From positions 2,155 to 66,154 of IMG/VR virus record IMGVR_UViG_2775507163_000001: DNA of 64,000 nt; one strand, written 5' to 3'. Position 1 is the first letter of the stretch; every line of letters begins with the position of its first letter. Source of the DNA: a virus. This document shows positions 7,268 through 50,255 of the stretch, one piece after another. The notes below the pieces were generated by a model. That model made no database searches and had not been told where the DNA came from. It worked only from the letters and a program-made list of their open reading frames with translations. A program made the translations under genes and the position numbers.

Positions 7268-8275
7268 ATGGAACCAATACGAATACGCGGTCAGGACGTG
7301 GCGGTCGACATCCGCACCGAGCTCGAGCAATTTAATTGGGTGCGCCCGAAATGGTCGTCAGATAAGCTGATAGCAGCGAGCCCCTTCCGTTACGACAAAA
7401 CGCCGAGCTTCTTCGTTAACTTCACCGGTCAGTATGCCGGATGTTGGGGCGACTCAGGCGCATATGACGCGGAATGGGCGAGCGGCAATTTCACGAAACT
7501 ATTAAGCTTTCTTCGCAACGAAACGTATGAGGAAACCGAGGAGTACTTGCTCGGAGAATACGGTATAAACGATAGCCAAACCAATGTAATCACGCTCCGA
7601 CCGGTCCGGCTTCAAGTTCAGCGATCTAGGCAGTCGCTGAGCGCTAGTATTCTCGCAAACTATACGGAAGACTATGCGTATCTGAAATCGCGCGGCATTA
7701 GCGAGGAAGTCCAAAGGCAAATGGGCGTTCTTTATGACCGCGAAAGCAGAGCGGCAGTTATTCCGTGGTGCTCTCCGAAAAAAACTTTAGAAAGTGTGAA
7801 GTACCGCACAGTCTACGGGAAAACTTTCTGGTATCATAGGGGCGGGCGACCTATTCGCGAGTTAGTTTACGGAATTGACCAGGCGGAAGCGACAACGGTA
7901 ATCTGTGAGGCGGAAATCGACGCAATGAGCTGGCTTCAAGCGGGCTATAGTGCGGTAGCGGTTGGCGGCGCTAATTTTAACGCACAGAAGCGCGATTTAC
8001 TCTTGCGTTCGAAAATTTCAGAATTAATCATCTGTTGCGACAACGATAAAGCAGGCGGCAAACTGCGTCGGGAAATTGAAGCGGCGATGAAAGGGCATGT
8101 GCGCGTGAGGCAGGCGTATGTGAGAGCGGATGGCCACAATGACGGCTTTTTCGTCAAGGACGCCAACGAGGCGCTAGTGAAGTACGGAGTGAGTTCCTTG
8201 CGTGAGGCGGTTGAGGAAGCGAAAATTTCGGATCAGTTGTACGTGAATTTACGTACCTTTGGTCGGGGTAGGTAA
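7268..8275 (+). CDS. dnaG: DNA primase (TOPRIM)
   Basis: PFRYDKTPSF N-terminus, VICEAEIDAMS and ICCDNDKAG TOPRIM motifs, KDANEAL; ATG 7268 after GCGGAGG. Confidence 0.85.
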   Translation: MEPIRIRGQDVAVDIRTELEQFNWVRPKWSSDKLIAASPFRYDKTPSFFVNFTGQYAGCWGDSGAYDAEWASGNFTKLLSFLRNETYEETEEYLLGEYGINDSQTNVITLRPVRLQVQRSRQSLSASILANYTEDYAYLKSRGISEEVQRQMGVLYDRESRAAVIPWCSPKKTLESVKYRTVYGKTFWYHRGGRPIRELVYGIDQAEATTVICEAEIDAMSWLQAGYSAVAVGGANFNAQKRDLLLRSKISELIICCDNDKAGGKLRREIEAAMKGHVRVRQAYVRADGHNDGFFVKDANEALVKYGVSSLREAVEEAKISDQLYVNLRTFGRGR

Positions 8276-8306
8276 CGCTCTGTTCCGTTACTTACCTTTC
8301 CTTTTT
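8267..8306. terminator. hairpin between convergent primase and XRE genes
   Basis: GGTAGGTAACG / CGTTACTTACC stem followed by TTTCCTTTTT. Confidence 0.6.
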
Positions 8307-8530
8307 CGCTTGCGTTCGGACGGATCGACATAAACCCATTCGTAAAGATCGGTGATTTCGCAGCCGAGTATTTCAGCGAGATTCATTGCGCTATCGAGTT
8401 CCATTACGTTGCGTTTATTTTCCCAGCCGGAAATCGTCGATTTCGACTTTCCGATTCGGTCGCCGAGTTGTGTTTGCGTAAGACCGCGGGATTTCCGTAT
8501 GTTCCGAAGCAAGCACTTTCCGACCGCAAT
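8288..8530 (-). CDS. XRE-family HTH transcriptional regulator
   Basis: LRNIRKSRGLTQTQLGDRIGKSKSTISGWEN classic XRE HTH; start probably ATT at 8530 behind GAGGTGA RBS (ORF track uses TTG 8512). Confidence 0.85.
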   Translation of the reverse strand: MAVGKCLLRNIRKSRGLTQTQLGDRIGKSKSTISGWENKRNVMELDSAMNLAEILGCEITDLYEWVYVDPSERKRKRKGK

Positions 8531-8566
8531 CGTGGCGCTTCACCTCGCAAAAACGTATGTATTTAA

Positions 8567-8788
8567 TTATTTCGACTTGGAGCCGTCAGGAGTGAAGCGA
8601 ACTACTGCTTCGATAGGGACGTCCAGAAATAAGCAAATCTTTTCGACGGTACTTAGGTTGACGTCGCCATCACGATTAATGGCGGCGATTGTTTTCTGAT
8701 GAAGGACTATGCCACGCATGTCGCTAATCACCATCTTTTTCTCAGTTAAGGTTTTACGAAGTGGCGAAAAATCTATCATTTTAACCAT
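8567..8788 (-). CDS. Cro/C1-type HTH regulator
   Basis: DFSPLRKTL...TIAAINRDGDVNLSTVEKICLFLDVPIEAVV; divergent from aimR. Confidence 0.8.
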   Translation of the reverse strand: MVKMIDFSPLRKTLTEKKMVISDMRGIVLHQKTIAAINRDGDVNLSTVEKICLFLDVPIEAVVRFTPDGSKSK

Positions 8789-8803
8789 TTCCTTCCTAAT
8801 TTT

Positions 8804-8835
8804 ATGTATACTTTAGTGTACATTCGTGGTACAAT
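8804..8835 (+). promoter_or_regulatory. imperfect palindrome overlapping the aimR promoter
   Basis: ATGTATACTTTAGTGTACAT (8804-8823) followed by extended -10 TGGTACAAT (8827-8835). Confidence 0.55.
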
Positions 8836-8891
8836 TCAATTATAACAGACAACGGAAAAATTTAACATCATTTTTGAAAGGGGATTTCCGA

Positions 8892-10109
8892 ATGGATAAA
8901 CTGTCTAAAGAAGTTTGCGATACAATTGAAAACCACGATTATTTAACGTACAACCTAGTCGCCGAAATGATCGACGGCACTAAGGATGATATGTCAAAAT
9001 TCCATACAAATAAAAGGCAATTAAGTTTCCGTAAATTCTTACGGTTATCTTATGTTCTTCATCCGGACAACCAAAAAGAAGTGTTTGACGGATGGTGCTT
9101 GCGCTTCAATACTACGGAAGCTATAAAACAAAGCTTTGAGTATGCGTCGATCACTCGGAATAAAGAGCTTTTAAAAACGCTTATTGATAAGTATAGCGAT
9201 GACAGCGCTCTAAGTAAACACGTCGCGATTTATACCATCTTATACGATTTCTATACGAATGAGATTAGAGCGAAGGATTTAATAACCAGACTCGATAAAG
9301 TCGGGCAGTTAAAAGGCGAGTTAGTTATTTTATCCGATATCATCAAATGCTATAATTATTACTGGGCGGAAAATTACTCGTTAATGCTGGCAACTGCAAA
9401 AGAAGCCGAGAAAGAAATCAACAAATTGGGAGACAGGCAGTTATTCATCAAAGAGTGTTACTTACATAGGGTTGCCGAAGTATTAGGCCACGTTAGCCGT
9501 CATTTAAACGACATTGATTCAGCTCGTTTTTACGCTAATTTAATAATTAATGCAGATATCTGCGCGAAAACAGTTGCGGGCGCGACATATATATTAGGGA
9601 TGTCGTACTTGCCCGAAGATAAAGAAAAAGCAATTAAATATCTTCAGATAAGATACGATATCACTAAAACTCTCGGAGAGCAAGATATAGAAAATAACGC
9701 TCGACGAGATTTAGATTTCGCAAAACTCTATTTAGACATTCAACTAGACGCCGACGCCGATCCTATACTTCTCAGACTACAGAATAACGAGGGAAGCGAA
9801 TTCGAACTAAAACTAATTAGGGAGGCGGTTTTCCAGGGAGGCGACGATGAATTTTTAGTTTTCTTATGCGCTATGGCCAAAAACTCCTTAGAGAAAATGC
9901 ACGAATGTCGCAAGTACTTTTTCAAACGAGGCAACTACTTCTTTACAAGTATGGCAGCCAGAGAAGCGAAGAAGTTAGGTGAAAGTTCCGCATTGATCGA
10001 GGAATTCATTGAAATTAAAACCGAAACCAAAGGGGATGTTGAATTTGAAGAAAATTTTATTAAGTGTTTTAATCGCGTCAGCAATCATCGCAGTTCCATT
10101 AGTGCTTAG
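8892..10109 (+). CDS. aimR: AimR-family arbitrium peptide receptor
   Basis: 405 aa; N-terminal HTH-like region, all-helical TPR-like body (SFEYAS, ECYLHRVAEVLG, AYILGMSY); followed by a short secreted peptide gene; GAAAGGGG RBS. Confidence 0.8.
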   Translation: MDKLSKEVCDTIENHDYLTYNLVAEMIDGTKDDMSKFHTNKRQLSFRKFLRLSYVLHPDNQKEVFDGWCLRFNTTEAIKQSFEYASITRNKELLKTLIDKYSDDSALSKHVAIYTILYDFYTNEIRAKDLITRLDKVGQLKGELVILSDIIKCYNYYWAENYSLMLATAKEAEKEINKLGDRQLFIKECYLHRVAEVLGHVSRHLNDIDSARFYANLIINADICAKTVAGATYILGMSYLPEDKEKAIKYLQIRYDITKTLGEQDIENNARRDLDFAKLYLDIQLDADADPILLRLQNNEGSEFELKLIREAVFQGGDDEFLVFLCAMAKNSLEKMHECRKYFFKRGNYFFTSMAAREAKKLGESSALIEEFIEIKTETKGDVEFEENFIKCFNRVSNHRSSISA

Positions 10110-10182
10110 CAACGGAGGAAAAGATACTGCCAGCGAAAAAGTCGGCGGCATTGTCACTTACTCAGAGAAAGTCGGAGGTTAA
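10045..10182 (+). CDS. aimP: AimP arbitrium pro-peptide (45 aa)
   Basis: TTG start 8 nt after AGGGGA; MKKILLSVLIASAIIAVPLVLSNGGKDTASEKVGGIVTYSEKVGG*: basic N-terminus, hydrophobic signal, SEKVGG twice; overlaps the aimR 3' end by 65 nt. Confidence 0.85.
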   Translation: MKKILLSVLIASAIIAVPLVLSNGGKDTASEKVGGIVTYSEKVGG

Positions 10183-10210
10183 TCCTAGAAATAAATAAAA
10201 GAAACTCCTT

Positions 10211-10239
10211 AAGGCGGCCATTGAGGTCGTCTTTTTTTT
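10211..10239 (+). terminator. intrinsic terminator after aimP
   Basis: AAGGCGGCC-ATTGA-GGTCGTCTT stem followed by a T run. Confidence 0.8.
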
Positions 10240-10250
10240 ATGCGATTTTT

Positions 10251-10270
10251 ATGTACACTGTAGTAGACAA
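10251..10270 (+). promoter_or_regulatory. second copy of the operator-like palindrome
   Basis: ATGTACACTGTAGTAGACAA, 16/20 identical to the reverse complement of 8804-8823; upstream of extended -10 TGCTATATT at 10321-10329. Confidence 0.5.
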
Positions 10271-10379
10271 AGAGTCAGAATTGAAAGATTGCCTACTTTC
10301 TACATTTTACCAATCGCCCATGCTATATTATTTATTGTAGACACGCACCAAAAAGTTTTTAAAGAAAATTTCAAAAAAG

Positions 10380-10408
10380 TGCGCGAAAACAAAAAGTCGT
10401 GCGACATA
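10380..10408 (+). promoter_or_regulatory. phage-sigma promoter consensus copy (autoregulatory position)
   Basis: TGCGCGA-N13-TGCGACATA. Confidence 0.65.
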
Positions 10409-10441
10409 CATTATGTAGCCGATAAAACGGGAGGTAATAAA

Positions 10442-11068
10442 ATGAACGAAAGTAAAAAACTAAATATCAACCACGCAGTAGCTCGATACCTGGTAACGAA
10501 AGGCGAAGCGGATTTCAACGAAGTCTACCGCAGCCTACACGCAGAGTACCGAAAGAAGATCGCCTACTGGTCGACATCAACGTTTATGGCAAACAAACAC
10601 GACGTTATGGAGATTTTCGATGATATGTTACTCCGGTCATTGGACGCAGTTGAAAAGAATGGCGGCGACTTCGTAAAGTTATTTCACCTCTCGCTAAACA
10701 GCCGCTACAAATCGCTACTACGAAAATTGACAACACGAAGAAAATTCGAGCAATACGAAGTGGAATCAGAAGAGGATGAGAAGCCGGCAAGCTTCGAAAT
10801 CGACAGCGGATTCAGAATCGAAGAAGAAATTATCGCAAAGAAAAAAGCCGACCAGCGGCAACTGATCGACTCTCTTCTGAACGATGCGGATGCTAAAACA
10901 ACGGCAATTGTTGAAGCGTTCCTGGTAAGTGAGAATGCATCTCCGACGGCAATCGGTGAAGCTCTCGGTTTACACCATTCAACTGTTATACGCTCACTCA
11001 AACGCCTGGCCGGCAAGTTTGATTCAAAAAAGTACGGCGATTATACCGACTTTTTAGTAGCGCTTTAA
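10442..11068 (+). CDS. phage sigma-70-like RNA polymerase sigma factor
   Basis: Region-2-like FNEVYRSL...DVMEIFDDMLLR...YKSLLRK and C-terminal HTH SPTAIGEALGLHHSTVIRSLKRL; GGGAGG RBS. Confidence 0.7.
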   Translation: MNESKKLNINHAVARYLVTKGEADFNEVYRSLHAEYRKKIAYWSTSTFMANKHDVMEIFDDMLLRSLDAVEKNGGDFVKLFHLSLNSRYKSLLRKLTTRRKFEQYEVESEEDEKPASFEIDSGFRIEEEIIAKKKADQRQLIDSLLNDADAKTTAIVEAFLVSENASPTAIGEALGLHHSTVIRSLKRLAGKFDSKKYGDYTDFLVAL

Positions 11069-11074
11069 TTTTAA

Positions 11075-11148
11075 GAGGTCGGTTAGGCCAATAGGCATTA
11101 GGTCTAACCCCTCGCGTTCATTATATCAACTTAATTTCGTTTTGTATA
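11075..11148 (-). promoter_or_regulatory. convergent sigma-A promoter and hairpin after the sigma gene
   Basis: Minus strand TATACA-17 nt-TATAAT with TG extension (11148-11120); hairpin 11075-11113. Confidence 0.5.
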
Positions 11149-11246
11149 TACGTTGTCTTGACACGTAATACGATTTAATCAAATTTTAATCTTTAATATA
11201 GTACGCTATTTTCGCCAAAAACGCAACGCCAAAGGAGGCTACGAAG

Positions 11247-23066: not shown

Positions 23067-23095
23067 TGCGCGACATTCAAATCTCGCGCGACATA
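23067..23095 (+). promoter_or_regulatory. phage-sigma promoter consensus copy before phoH
   Basis: TGCGCGA-N13-CGCGACATA. Confidence 0.65.
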
Positions 23096-38088: not shown

Positions 38089-38117
38089 TGCGCGATTTCC
38101 GATTCTCGTGCGACATA
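38089..38117 (+). promoter_or_regulatory. phage-sigma promoter consensus copy before the HNH-terminase operon
   Basis: TGCGCGA-N13-TGCGACATA. Confidence 0.65.
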
Positions 38118-50179: not shown

Positions 50180-50255
50180 TGTCCGATTTTGTGAAGTCAT
50201 GCGTCATACAAAATATAGACGTAGACTGCGCGACTTTGCTGAGTAATGCGACATA
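50180..50255 (+). promoter_or_regulatory. two tandem phage-sigma promoter copies before the HNH gene
   Basis: TGTCCGA-N13-TGCGTCATA (50180-208) and TGCGCGA-N13-TGCGACATA (50227-55). Confidence 0.6.

Follow-up and report, generated by a model that had tools for sequence, protein, structure and literature searches.

The stretch of DNA analysed here, 64,000 nucleotides long and called the window below, covers positions 2,155 to 66,154 of the IMG/VR virus record IMGVR_UViG_2775507163_000001. It contains an arbitrium receptor gene, aimR, and a signal gene, aimP, whose short product carries the hexapeptide SEKVGG twice. The aimR gene (8892..10109, plus strand) encodes a protein of 405 amino acids with an N-terminal helix-turn-helix (HTH) and a domain resembling tetratricopeptide repeats (TPR), as judged from profile search, structural model and fold search. 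An earlier note on this DNA, made from the sequence alone, had taken this HTH-TPR-like protein for AimR, and a hidden Markov model (HMM) search bore this out: the product scored 239.8 bits against NCBIfam NF038310, the AimR equivalog (cut-off 70), and 113.2 bits against Pfam PF22871 (cut-off 26.7). The AlphaFold2 (AF2) model has a predicted local distance difference test (pLDDT) score of 87.7 and a predicted template modelling (pTM) score of 0.87. When the PDB was searched with this model using Foldseek, the best 16 matches were all AimR, with template modelling (TM) scores of 0.6-0.75; Rap, PlcR, ComR and PrgX ranked below AimR, Rap first at rank 17. Identity to the solved AimRs is 17-21%, and a profile built from 30 homologues recovers the solved AimR chains 9f36, 7q0n, 6s7i and 5zvv. 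No second AimR was found in the host genome, where aimR is the single gene of its kind. By its HMM scores and fold, the AimR-AimP pair is a genuine member of the arbitrium family, through which phages communicate with one another.

The aimP gene (10045..10182, plus strand) starts with TTG, overlaps the last 65 nucleotides of aimR and encodes a pre-pro-peptide of 45 amino acids. A ribosome-binding site, AAAGGGG (10029..10035, plus strand), can be read from the sequence; GGGG or GGAG is kept 9 nucleotides before the TTG, and the TTG itself is invariant in 16 relatives. An ATG lies upstream (10036), but it is lost in the related loci L005 and L039, and in L044 a stop codon stands between the ATG and the TTG. 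Because the TTG is conserved together with its spacing from the ribosome-binding site and the ATG is not kept, the 45-residue reading of aimP is right. The N-terminus of AimP has two lysines and a hydrophobic stretch of 18 residues, and Pro, Val and Ser occupy positions -5, -3 and -1 before NGG; by rule, a signal-peptidase I site is predicted after ...VLS. Between this predicted site and the first hexapeptide is a pro-segment of seven residues, NGGKDTA (10111..10131, plus strand). Then follow, on the same strand, the internal copy 1 of SEKVGG (10132..10149, AGC GAA AAA GTC GGC GGC), the spacer IVTY (10150..10161) and copy 2 (10162..10179, TCA GAG AAA GTC GGA GGT, then TAA), which lies at the canonical C-terminal position. 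The tail of AimP reads ...KDTA-SEKVGG-IVTY-SEKVGG-stop, with 6 synonymous differences between the 18 nucleotides of one copy and those of the other. The earlier note had described the position of this reading frame, its overlap with aimR, its length and the two differently encoded copies, and it was correct on each of them. Shuffling the whole peptide 1,000,000 times brought the C-terminal hexapeptide back exactly in 7 cases, and shuffling the pro-region as often did so in 3; the repeat is not a product of chance. With AimP as the query, 5.8 billion called proteins yielded two relatives and no self-hit, so aimP is probably unannotated; gene callers almost never annotate these aimP genes.

Genomes of Neobacillus, Peribacillus and Mesobacillus, as well as viral and metagenomic contigs, contain AimR homologues with 60-93% identity. 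The close relatives came mostly from look-ups of AimR homologues and from IMG/VR, and scans of genome and metagenome contigs gave few. The DNA at 8200-11100 had no match among 50,697 phage records, and isolated phages reach an AimR identity of 33-42% at most. At each fetched locus of the 60-93% group, AimP ends in a peptide of the type [SAP][EDN][KR]VGG. Five doubled AimPs were found besides that of the window (KDTA-SEKVGG-IVTY-SEKVGG): those of N. niacini 3240 (L005, KDIA-SDKVGG-FILF-SDKVGG), L044 (VDTA-SDKVGG-FVTPY-SDKVGG), L100-105 (KDTA-SDKVGG-MMTPF-SDKVGG), L106/107 (VDTA-SDKVGG-ITTY-SDKVGG) and L108 (KETA-SDKVGG-IITPY-SDKVGG). An exact internal copy of the end peptide is present in 7 of 64 distinct AimP tails, namely the six doubled tails of the KVGG type and that of L054 (IMGVR_UViG_2574179748_000003). 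L054 belongs to a distant B. cereus-type clade and ends in ...MQYAEIKPGG-IQYAEIKPGG, with three synonymous nucleotide differences between the copies; this doubling is a separate, recent 30-nucleotide tandem duplication, by which QYAEIKPGG stands there twice. In addition, the Logan contigs L109-L111, from a relative of the SDKVGG clade with 75% AimR identity, encode a single copy, SDKVGL, which breaks the Gly-Gly end otherwise universal in this group.

The AimR tree unites the SDKVGG phages L005, L044 and L100 in a single clade with 100/100 support; L106 and L108, which are not in the tree, were placed with this clade by 86-90% AimR identity to its members. The window pairs with L033, also with 100/100 support, and their AimRs are 93% identical. 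SEKVGG ends the single-copy AimPs of L033, L034, L035, L026 and L036, and the SERVGG, AEKVGG and ANKVGG lineages have a single copy as well. The C-terminal hexapeptide co-varies with the AimR clades. Remnants of a first copy are seen at the corresponding place in some single-copy AimPs: AGC GGG GGA (S--GG) in L039 and SNGDGG-ISTA-AEKVGG in L001. Three very close relatives, L035, L026 (G261) and L036, have GVGSGG, GFDTGG and GFSPGG there, each followed by VEVA-SEKVGG: either the first copy decayed rapidly in them or they carry a divergent second peptide. The distribution of intact copies and remnants points to an old duplication, lost by decay in some lineages and preserved intact in others.

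The codons of the six doubled AimPs tell how the two copies were kept. Serine is always encoded by AGY in copy 1 and by TCN in copy 2, and because this holds for six of six, the doubled layout is inherited, not repeatedly invented and not homogenised by gene conversion. Across the six, copy 1 varies at all 6 third positions and at none of the 12 first and second positions (Fisher p = 5.4e-5), and copy 2 varies at 4 of 6 third positions and at 0 of 12 others. Almost no residue of the intervening spacer is constant among the relatives (MMTPF, FVTPY, FILF, ITTY and IITPY), and in all six AimPs the identity between the copies ends exactly at six residues, which supports a hexapeptide with Ser first. 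The earlier note had left the mature signal as SEKVGG or EKVGG; this border, together with the serine being kept through different codon families, favours SEKVGG. Its suggestion that the two copies might give two peptide variants is not supported, since the copies are identical in every doubled relative, and its view that the protein sequence is what is conserved is supported far more strongly by the relatives than by the window itself. The sole amino-acid difference among the six is Glu in the window versus Asp in the other five. It is found in both copies and goes back to separate third-base changes (GAA and GAG versus GAC and GAT). The AimRs of these six phages differ by up to 32%. These substitution patterns show purifying selection on both copies, and we read the copies as fitted to the receptor. 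Two other histories were considered and rejected: separate duplication events in the window and the SDKVGG clade, which conflict with the common AGY/TCN serine codons and the common KD[TI]A pro-segment, and gene conversion behind the joint Glu/Asp change, which conflicts with the 3-8 synonymous differences between the copies in every phage.

The receptor differs along with the peptide. We looked for residues that are common to all Asp-type AimRs, that is, those of the five SDKVGG systems and of the SDKVGL and SDRVGG systems, and absent from the Glu- and Asn-type AimRs. Seven AimR positions track Glu versus Asp in this way: 189, 233, 269, 273, 276, 309 and 350. Residues were mapped through a profile alignment to AimR 13952, numbered as in SPbeta, and by this remote alignment 233, 269, 273, 276 and 350 correspond to the SPbeta contacts L235, I269, A273, F276 and F362. 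In SPbeta all five touch the peptide, with A273, F276 and F362 lining the pockets that receive its positions 2 and 3 (Gallego del Sol et al. 2019, PMC6458997). An overlap of five of seven, drawn from 28 contact residues in 386, has a hypergeometric p of 2.7e-5, a value to be read with the ancestry that the Asp-type systems may share. K226, invariant in the AimR homologues, is aligned by the same remote profile alignment with R228 of the SPbeta-type AimR, which anchors the peptide carboxylate (PMC6458997). The residues of SPbeta AimR that anchor the ends and the backbone of the peptide are N202, R228, T236, E300 and D360. Near-invariant N348 is likewise aligned with D360 of SPbeta, and H200 and I234 stand opposite N202 and T236, in a remote alignment of receptors whose peptide motifs are KVGG here and RGA there. 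As far as the sequences tell, both copies have changed jointly with positions of the receptor pocket.

The region is also mosaic. The aimR DNA of the window and L033 is 80-94% identical, but at 10078-10198 the identity to L033 goes down to 49-56% and that to L100 goes up to 81-92%. The gene 3' of aimP is of a sequence type unlike that of L033 and common to L034-L036 and L001. The doubled 3' half of aimP may have entered by recombination, with later fitting to the Glu-type receptor, or the remodelling may have been in L033, in its own AimP copy. Under either origin, both copies match the receptor type.

We consider it probable that the window carries a working AimR-AimP module in which each precursor yields up to two identical SEKVGG peptides. 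AimP would be exported and cut by signal peptidase after ...VLS, and the 23-residue pro-peptide NGGKDTA-SEKVGG-IVTY-SEKVGG would be trimmed by extracellular proteases of the host. The C-terminal copy would need one cut and the internal copy two, one of them after Gly-Gly. Up to two SEKVGG per precursor would result, probably with different kinetics, the internal copy being released later or under narrower conditions. SEKVGG would then be re-imported through an Opp-type permease and bind the TPR pocket of AimR, and at a high peptide level the bound AimR would lose its activating DNA binding, with a bias towards lysogeny as the outcome. The host genome encodes at least eight S8 peptidases and at least four OppA-type binding proteins, so the usual machinery for peptide maturation and import is plausible. 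We infer secretion and import, the liberation of both copies, the influence on lysogeny and the target of regulation by homology or analogy.

The closest analogy is the Phr peptide of phage phi105, which contains two identical ERPVGT sequences with a 4-residue spacer, and 7 residues between the signal-peptidase site and the internal one (Felipe-Ruiz et al. 2024, PMC11343458). Extracellular proteases mature both copies of phi105 Phr; several make the C-terminal one, and the internal one requires WprA (PMC11343458). The propeptide geometry is near-identical in the window, with the 7-residue NGGKDTA and the 4-residue IVTY, and both systems are phage-borne and belong to the RRNPPA family. They differ in that the phi105 receptor is a Rap, which lacks an HTH and acts on proteins, and in that maturation of both copies was shown experimentally for phi105, whereas for the window AimP it would follow by likeness. 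With phi105 Phr as the model (PMC11343458), a double dose of SEKVGG is plausible.

Several points weigh against a working module with two released peptides. L033, the closest AimR relative at 93% identity, has a single SEKVGG, so at least one lineage can do without the second copy. Cleavage after Gly-Gly, which the internal copy needs, is not at an obvious site for a subtilisin-type protease. The mapping of receptor positions to SPbeta residues is a remote profile alignment between proteins of 17-21% identity. An AimR-type operator, that is, 6-bp inverted repeats about 25 bp apart, was not found at 10183-10441, and no aimX-like open reading frame (ORF) is conserved after aimP, its frame being broken in L002 and L034. 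The 6-bp/25-bp operator and aimX are features of the SPbeta subtype and do not define the family.

In the competing explanation that survives best, though we hold it to be unlikely, only the C-terminal copy is the signal, and the internal copy is kept for another role that depends on its sequence: as a competitor or delay element for the maturing proteases, or as a form that stays on the cell or is longer, SEKVGGIVTY or a 16-mer, and is weakly or differently active. Such a role would agree with a Gly-Gly cleavage that is untypical of subtilisin-type proteases and with L033, which functions with one copy. The phi105 precedent points the same way in part, since a specific protease is required for its internal copy and the immature forms are poor binders (PMC11343458). 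However, the joint Glu/Asp change of both copies with residues of the receptor pocket is predicted by selection at the level of the receptor and is unexpected for a role at the level of proteases. Moreover, the repeat identity ends at the borders of the hexapeptide and the flanks vary freely.

Another explanation, in our judgement distinctly improbable, regards the duplication mainly as an evolutionary device: through a duplicated, promiscuous intermediate, as proposed for Rap-Phr, peptide and receptor could change their specificity from Glu to Asp or back while signalling went on, and the identical copies are the end state. It draws on the RR/KR/KK series of RapK2-PhrK2 and the model of duplication-dependent divergence built on it (Even-Tov et al. 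2016, PMC5199041). The EE of the window and the DD of the five relatives mirror that series, in that an intragenic duplication persists and related systems have the same single-residue difference in both copies. A 2025 preprint has suggested, as a conjecture offered without data, that arbitrium diversification 'possibly' took this Phr duplication route (bioRxiv 10.1101/2025.10.13.681967). The receptor family is another one here, though, and no mixed intermediate was seen, with a mixed Glu/Asp AimP in 0 of 64 distinct AimP tails. Synonymous sites are saturated and the copies are still identical, which speaks for long-term maintenance and not for a transient state. The 3' half of aimP in the window may, in addition, have come by recombination.

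That the internal copy is a functionless, neutral relic of an old duplication is very hard to believe. Decayed remnants do occur at the same place (S--GG in L039 and GVGSGG, GFDTGG and GFSPGG in L035, L026 and L036), but copy 1 varies at six of six synonymous versus none of 12 non-synonymous positions in six phages whose AimRs are up to 32% different, the adjacent spacer varies at almost every residue, and the synonymous differences exclude a very recent mutual copying of the six doubled sequences. It is equally far-fetched that the pair is a host quorum-sensing cassette of the Rap, NprR or PlcR kind that lies by chance in a prophage and is no lysis-lysogeny switch: the output gene is indeed neither aimX nor aimC, but the protein scores 239.8 bits with the AimR equivalog HMM, its top fold matches are all AimR with Rap from rank 17, and every related phage contig has the pair placed between the replication genes and a sigma-like regulator.

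This regulator is the next gene after the arbitrium pair (10442..11068, plus strand). It encodes a protein of 208 amino acids resembling the sigma-70 family (TIGR02937, E 1.3e-5, below the cut-off; phrog_1740 sigma factor, E 1e-3). Its AF2 model has a pLDDT of 76, and in a PDB fold search nearly all of the best 50 matches were sigma factors, all weak (E >= 5e-3). A homologue of 200-208 amino acids follows aimP in every relative, its C-terminal half highly conserved and its N-terminal half mosaic. The sigma-like gene is a candidate for the arbitrium output in place of aimX, and by analogy the target of AimR is probably the promoter region before this gene and not aimX. An ORF of 39 codons at 10221..10340 was considered as aimX and rejected: it starts in the T-run of a terminator without a ribosome-binding site, its conservation is block-wise regardless of codon position, and L002 and L034 have its frame broken or cut short. 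The terminator in question is an intrinsic one after aimP (10211..10241, plus strand), with a 9-pair stem and a T-run that are both kept in 16 of 16 aligned relatives.

Two kinds of DNA motif accompany the genes. The first is an 18-bp palindromic, operator-like site, which lies in the promoter region of aimR (8805..8822, TGTATAC-TTTA-GTGTACA) and again directly 3' of the terminator (10252..10269). Its consensus is TGTAYAC-N4-GTNNACA; the window contains two full sites and a weaker one, which make 6 matches over both strands where 0.17 are expected. The palindrome is present 5' of aimR in 14 of 16 relatives examined and after aimP in 15 of 16 sequences examined, the window included, and L035, L026 and L036 have a tandem pair there. 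With so short a spacer, the site is a better fit for a small Cro-like dimer than for an AimR of the SPbeta type; the dimer might be that of the 73-residue HTH_26 protein described below.

The second is a sigma-type promoter-like motif, TGCGCGA-N14-GCGACATA. It occurs inside aimR (9561..9589, plus strand), about 450 nucleotides 5' of aimP, and 5' of the sigma-like gene (10380..10408, plus strand), where GTGCGCGA is kept in the alignment of relatives; an extended -10-like TGCTATATT is conserved between the palindrome and the sigma-like gene. Five exact copies are found in the window, at 9561-9589, 10380-10408, 23067-23095, 38089-38117 and 50227-50255, where 1.75 are expected for a looser pattern. 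The copy inside aimR is at the same place in L001, L006, L037 and L047, down to 36% identity. Its codons TGC GCG AAA (Cys-Ala-Lys, 9561-9569) are identical in 12 of 12 distinct versions of aimR, from the window and 11 relatives, down to 36% protein identity; a thirteenth version of the stretch is the motif copy at 10380 and not aimR. The frozen codons indicate a constraint at the DNA level within the coding sequence, and together with the recurrence of the motif they suggest a candidate sigma-dependent promoter inside aimR that would feed aimP.

Two small HTH genes are located upstream of aimR on the minus strand. One encodes an XRE/Cro-type regulator of 74 amino acids (8288..8512; Pfam HTH_3, E 7e-14; PHROG families of transcriptional regulators and repressors). 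The other, divergent from aimR, encodes an HTH_26 (Cro/C1-type) regulator of 73 amino acids (8567..8788; Pfam HTH_26, 25 bits, cut-off 22), and an HTH_26 gene for 65-70 amino acids is at the same position in every relative with upstream DNA. An Rfam search of 8200-11200 gave nothing at E <= 0.1. Farther away, the window encodes a DnaB-like helicase, a primase, a DNA polymerase, a ribonucleotide reductase, a terminase, a portal protein, a major head (capsid) protein and a tape-measure protein, and it is a large prophage, that of a temperate phage of roughly 65 kb. The prophage sits on a 218-kb contig of a 5.6-Mb genome, and related AimR loci are on IMG/VR contigs of 57-67 kb. The host is presumably a Neobacillus-type soil bacterium, of the same genus as G166, whose match coordinates equal those of the N. 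niacini 3240 contig of L005.

The layout of this locus is unlike both described arbitrium architectures. With the AimR-AimP-AimX system of SPbeta and phi3T (PMC6458997) it shares the receptor family and fold, aimP directly downstream as a pre-pro-peptide (its secretion here being predicted), the terminator after aimP, a basic residue that the remote alignment puts at the carboxylate-anchor position, and an AimP whose last six residues end in Gly-Gly or Gly-Ala. It differs from that system in the peptide motif, xxKVGG in place of xxxRGA, in having the hexapeptide twice, in an identity of 17-21% to the solved AimRs, and in having a sigma-like gene next, with no aimX ORF and no recognisable 6-bp/25-bp operator. 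In the extended module aimR-aimP-aimX/aimC-aimL (Kabel et al. 2025, bioRxiv 10.1101/2025.11.23.689978), the arbitrium pair likewise stands beside small HTH regulators of the phage switch. There, however, aimC is downstream and faces the other way with aimX between, whereas here the small HTH genes are upstream and divergent, aimP is followed by no conserved small ORF, and the sigma-like gene that comes next is co-directional.

Doubled signals as such are already known. That a mature peptide can be duplicated within its gene is established for Phr and NprX (PMC5199041), and such duplication has been dissected biochemically in two phage Rap-Phr systems, phi105 among them (PMC11343458). Among AimR propeptides, those with a repeated mature peptide have been termed 'chatterers' and make up 3 of 11 atypically long propeptides (Felipe-Ruiz, Marina & Rocha 2022, PMC9765709). 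That survey covered unusually long propeptides alone and, in the part consulted, contains no clade-level analysis; because the window AimP, at 45 amino acids, is of ordinary length, such a filter would skip it. We found no mention of KVGG arbitrium peptides in the literature. What this example adds is the evolutionary evidence and the unusual wiring of the output, and not a new principle or mechanism.

A broader proposal can be put forward tentatively, as a possibility we rate somewhat below even: the doubled AimP may be a long-lived, selected design in phages of Neobacillus and Peribacillus, with a concerted Glu/Asp switch in both copies and remodelling of the AimR pocket (positions aligned with SPbeta 235, 269, 273, 276 and 362), and AimR may control a phage sigma factor while a sigma-type promoter inside aimR boosts aimP in cells that run the lytic programme. 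If the first part is true, phage arbitrium would have its first natural record of a specificity shift that a duplicated signal carried; the second would mean a wiring unlike that of all studied arbitrium systems. Doubled signals occur in AimPs of normal length, which the published survey skipped, and are thus probably more frequent than estimated. In practical terms the consequence is modest: the locus offers a testable case of dose or timing control of a phage signal. For the question of how arbitrium systems come by new private signals, this clade offers a natural test series, in which single SEKVGG, doubled SEKVGG, doubled SDKVGG, single SDKVGL, single SERVGG and decayed first copies are accompanied by a small set of receptor positions whose residues vary along with the peptide.

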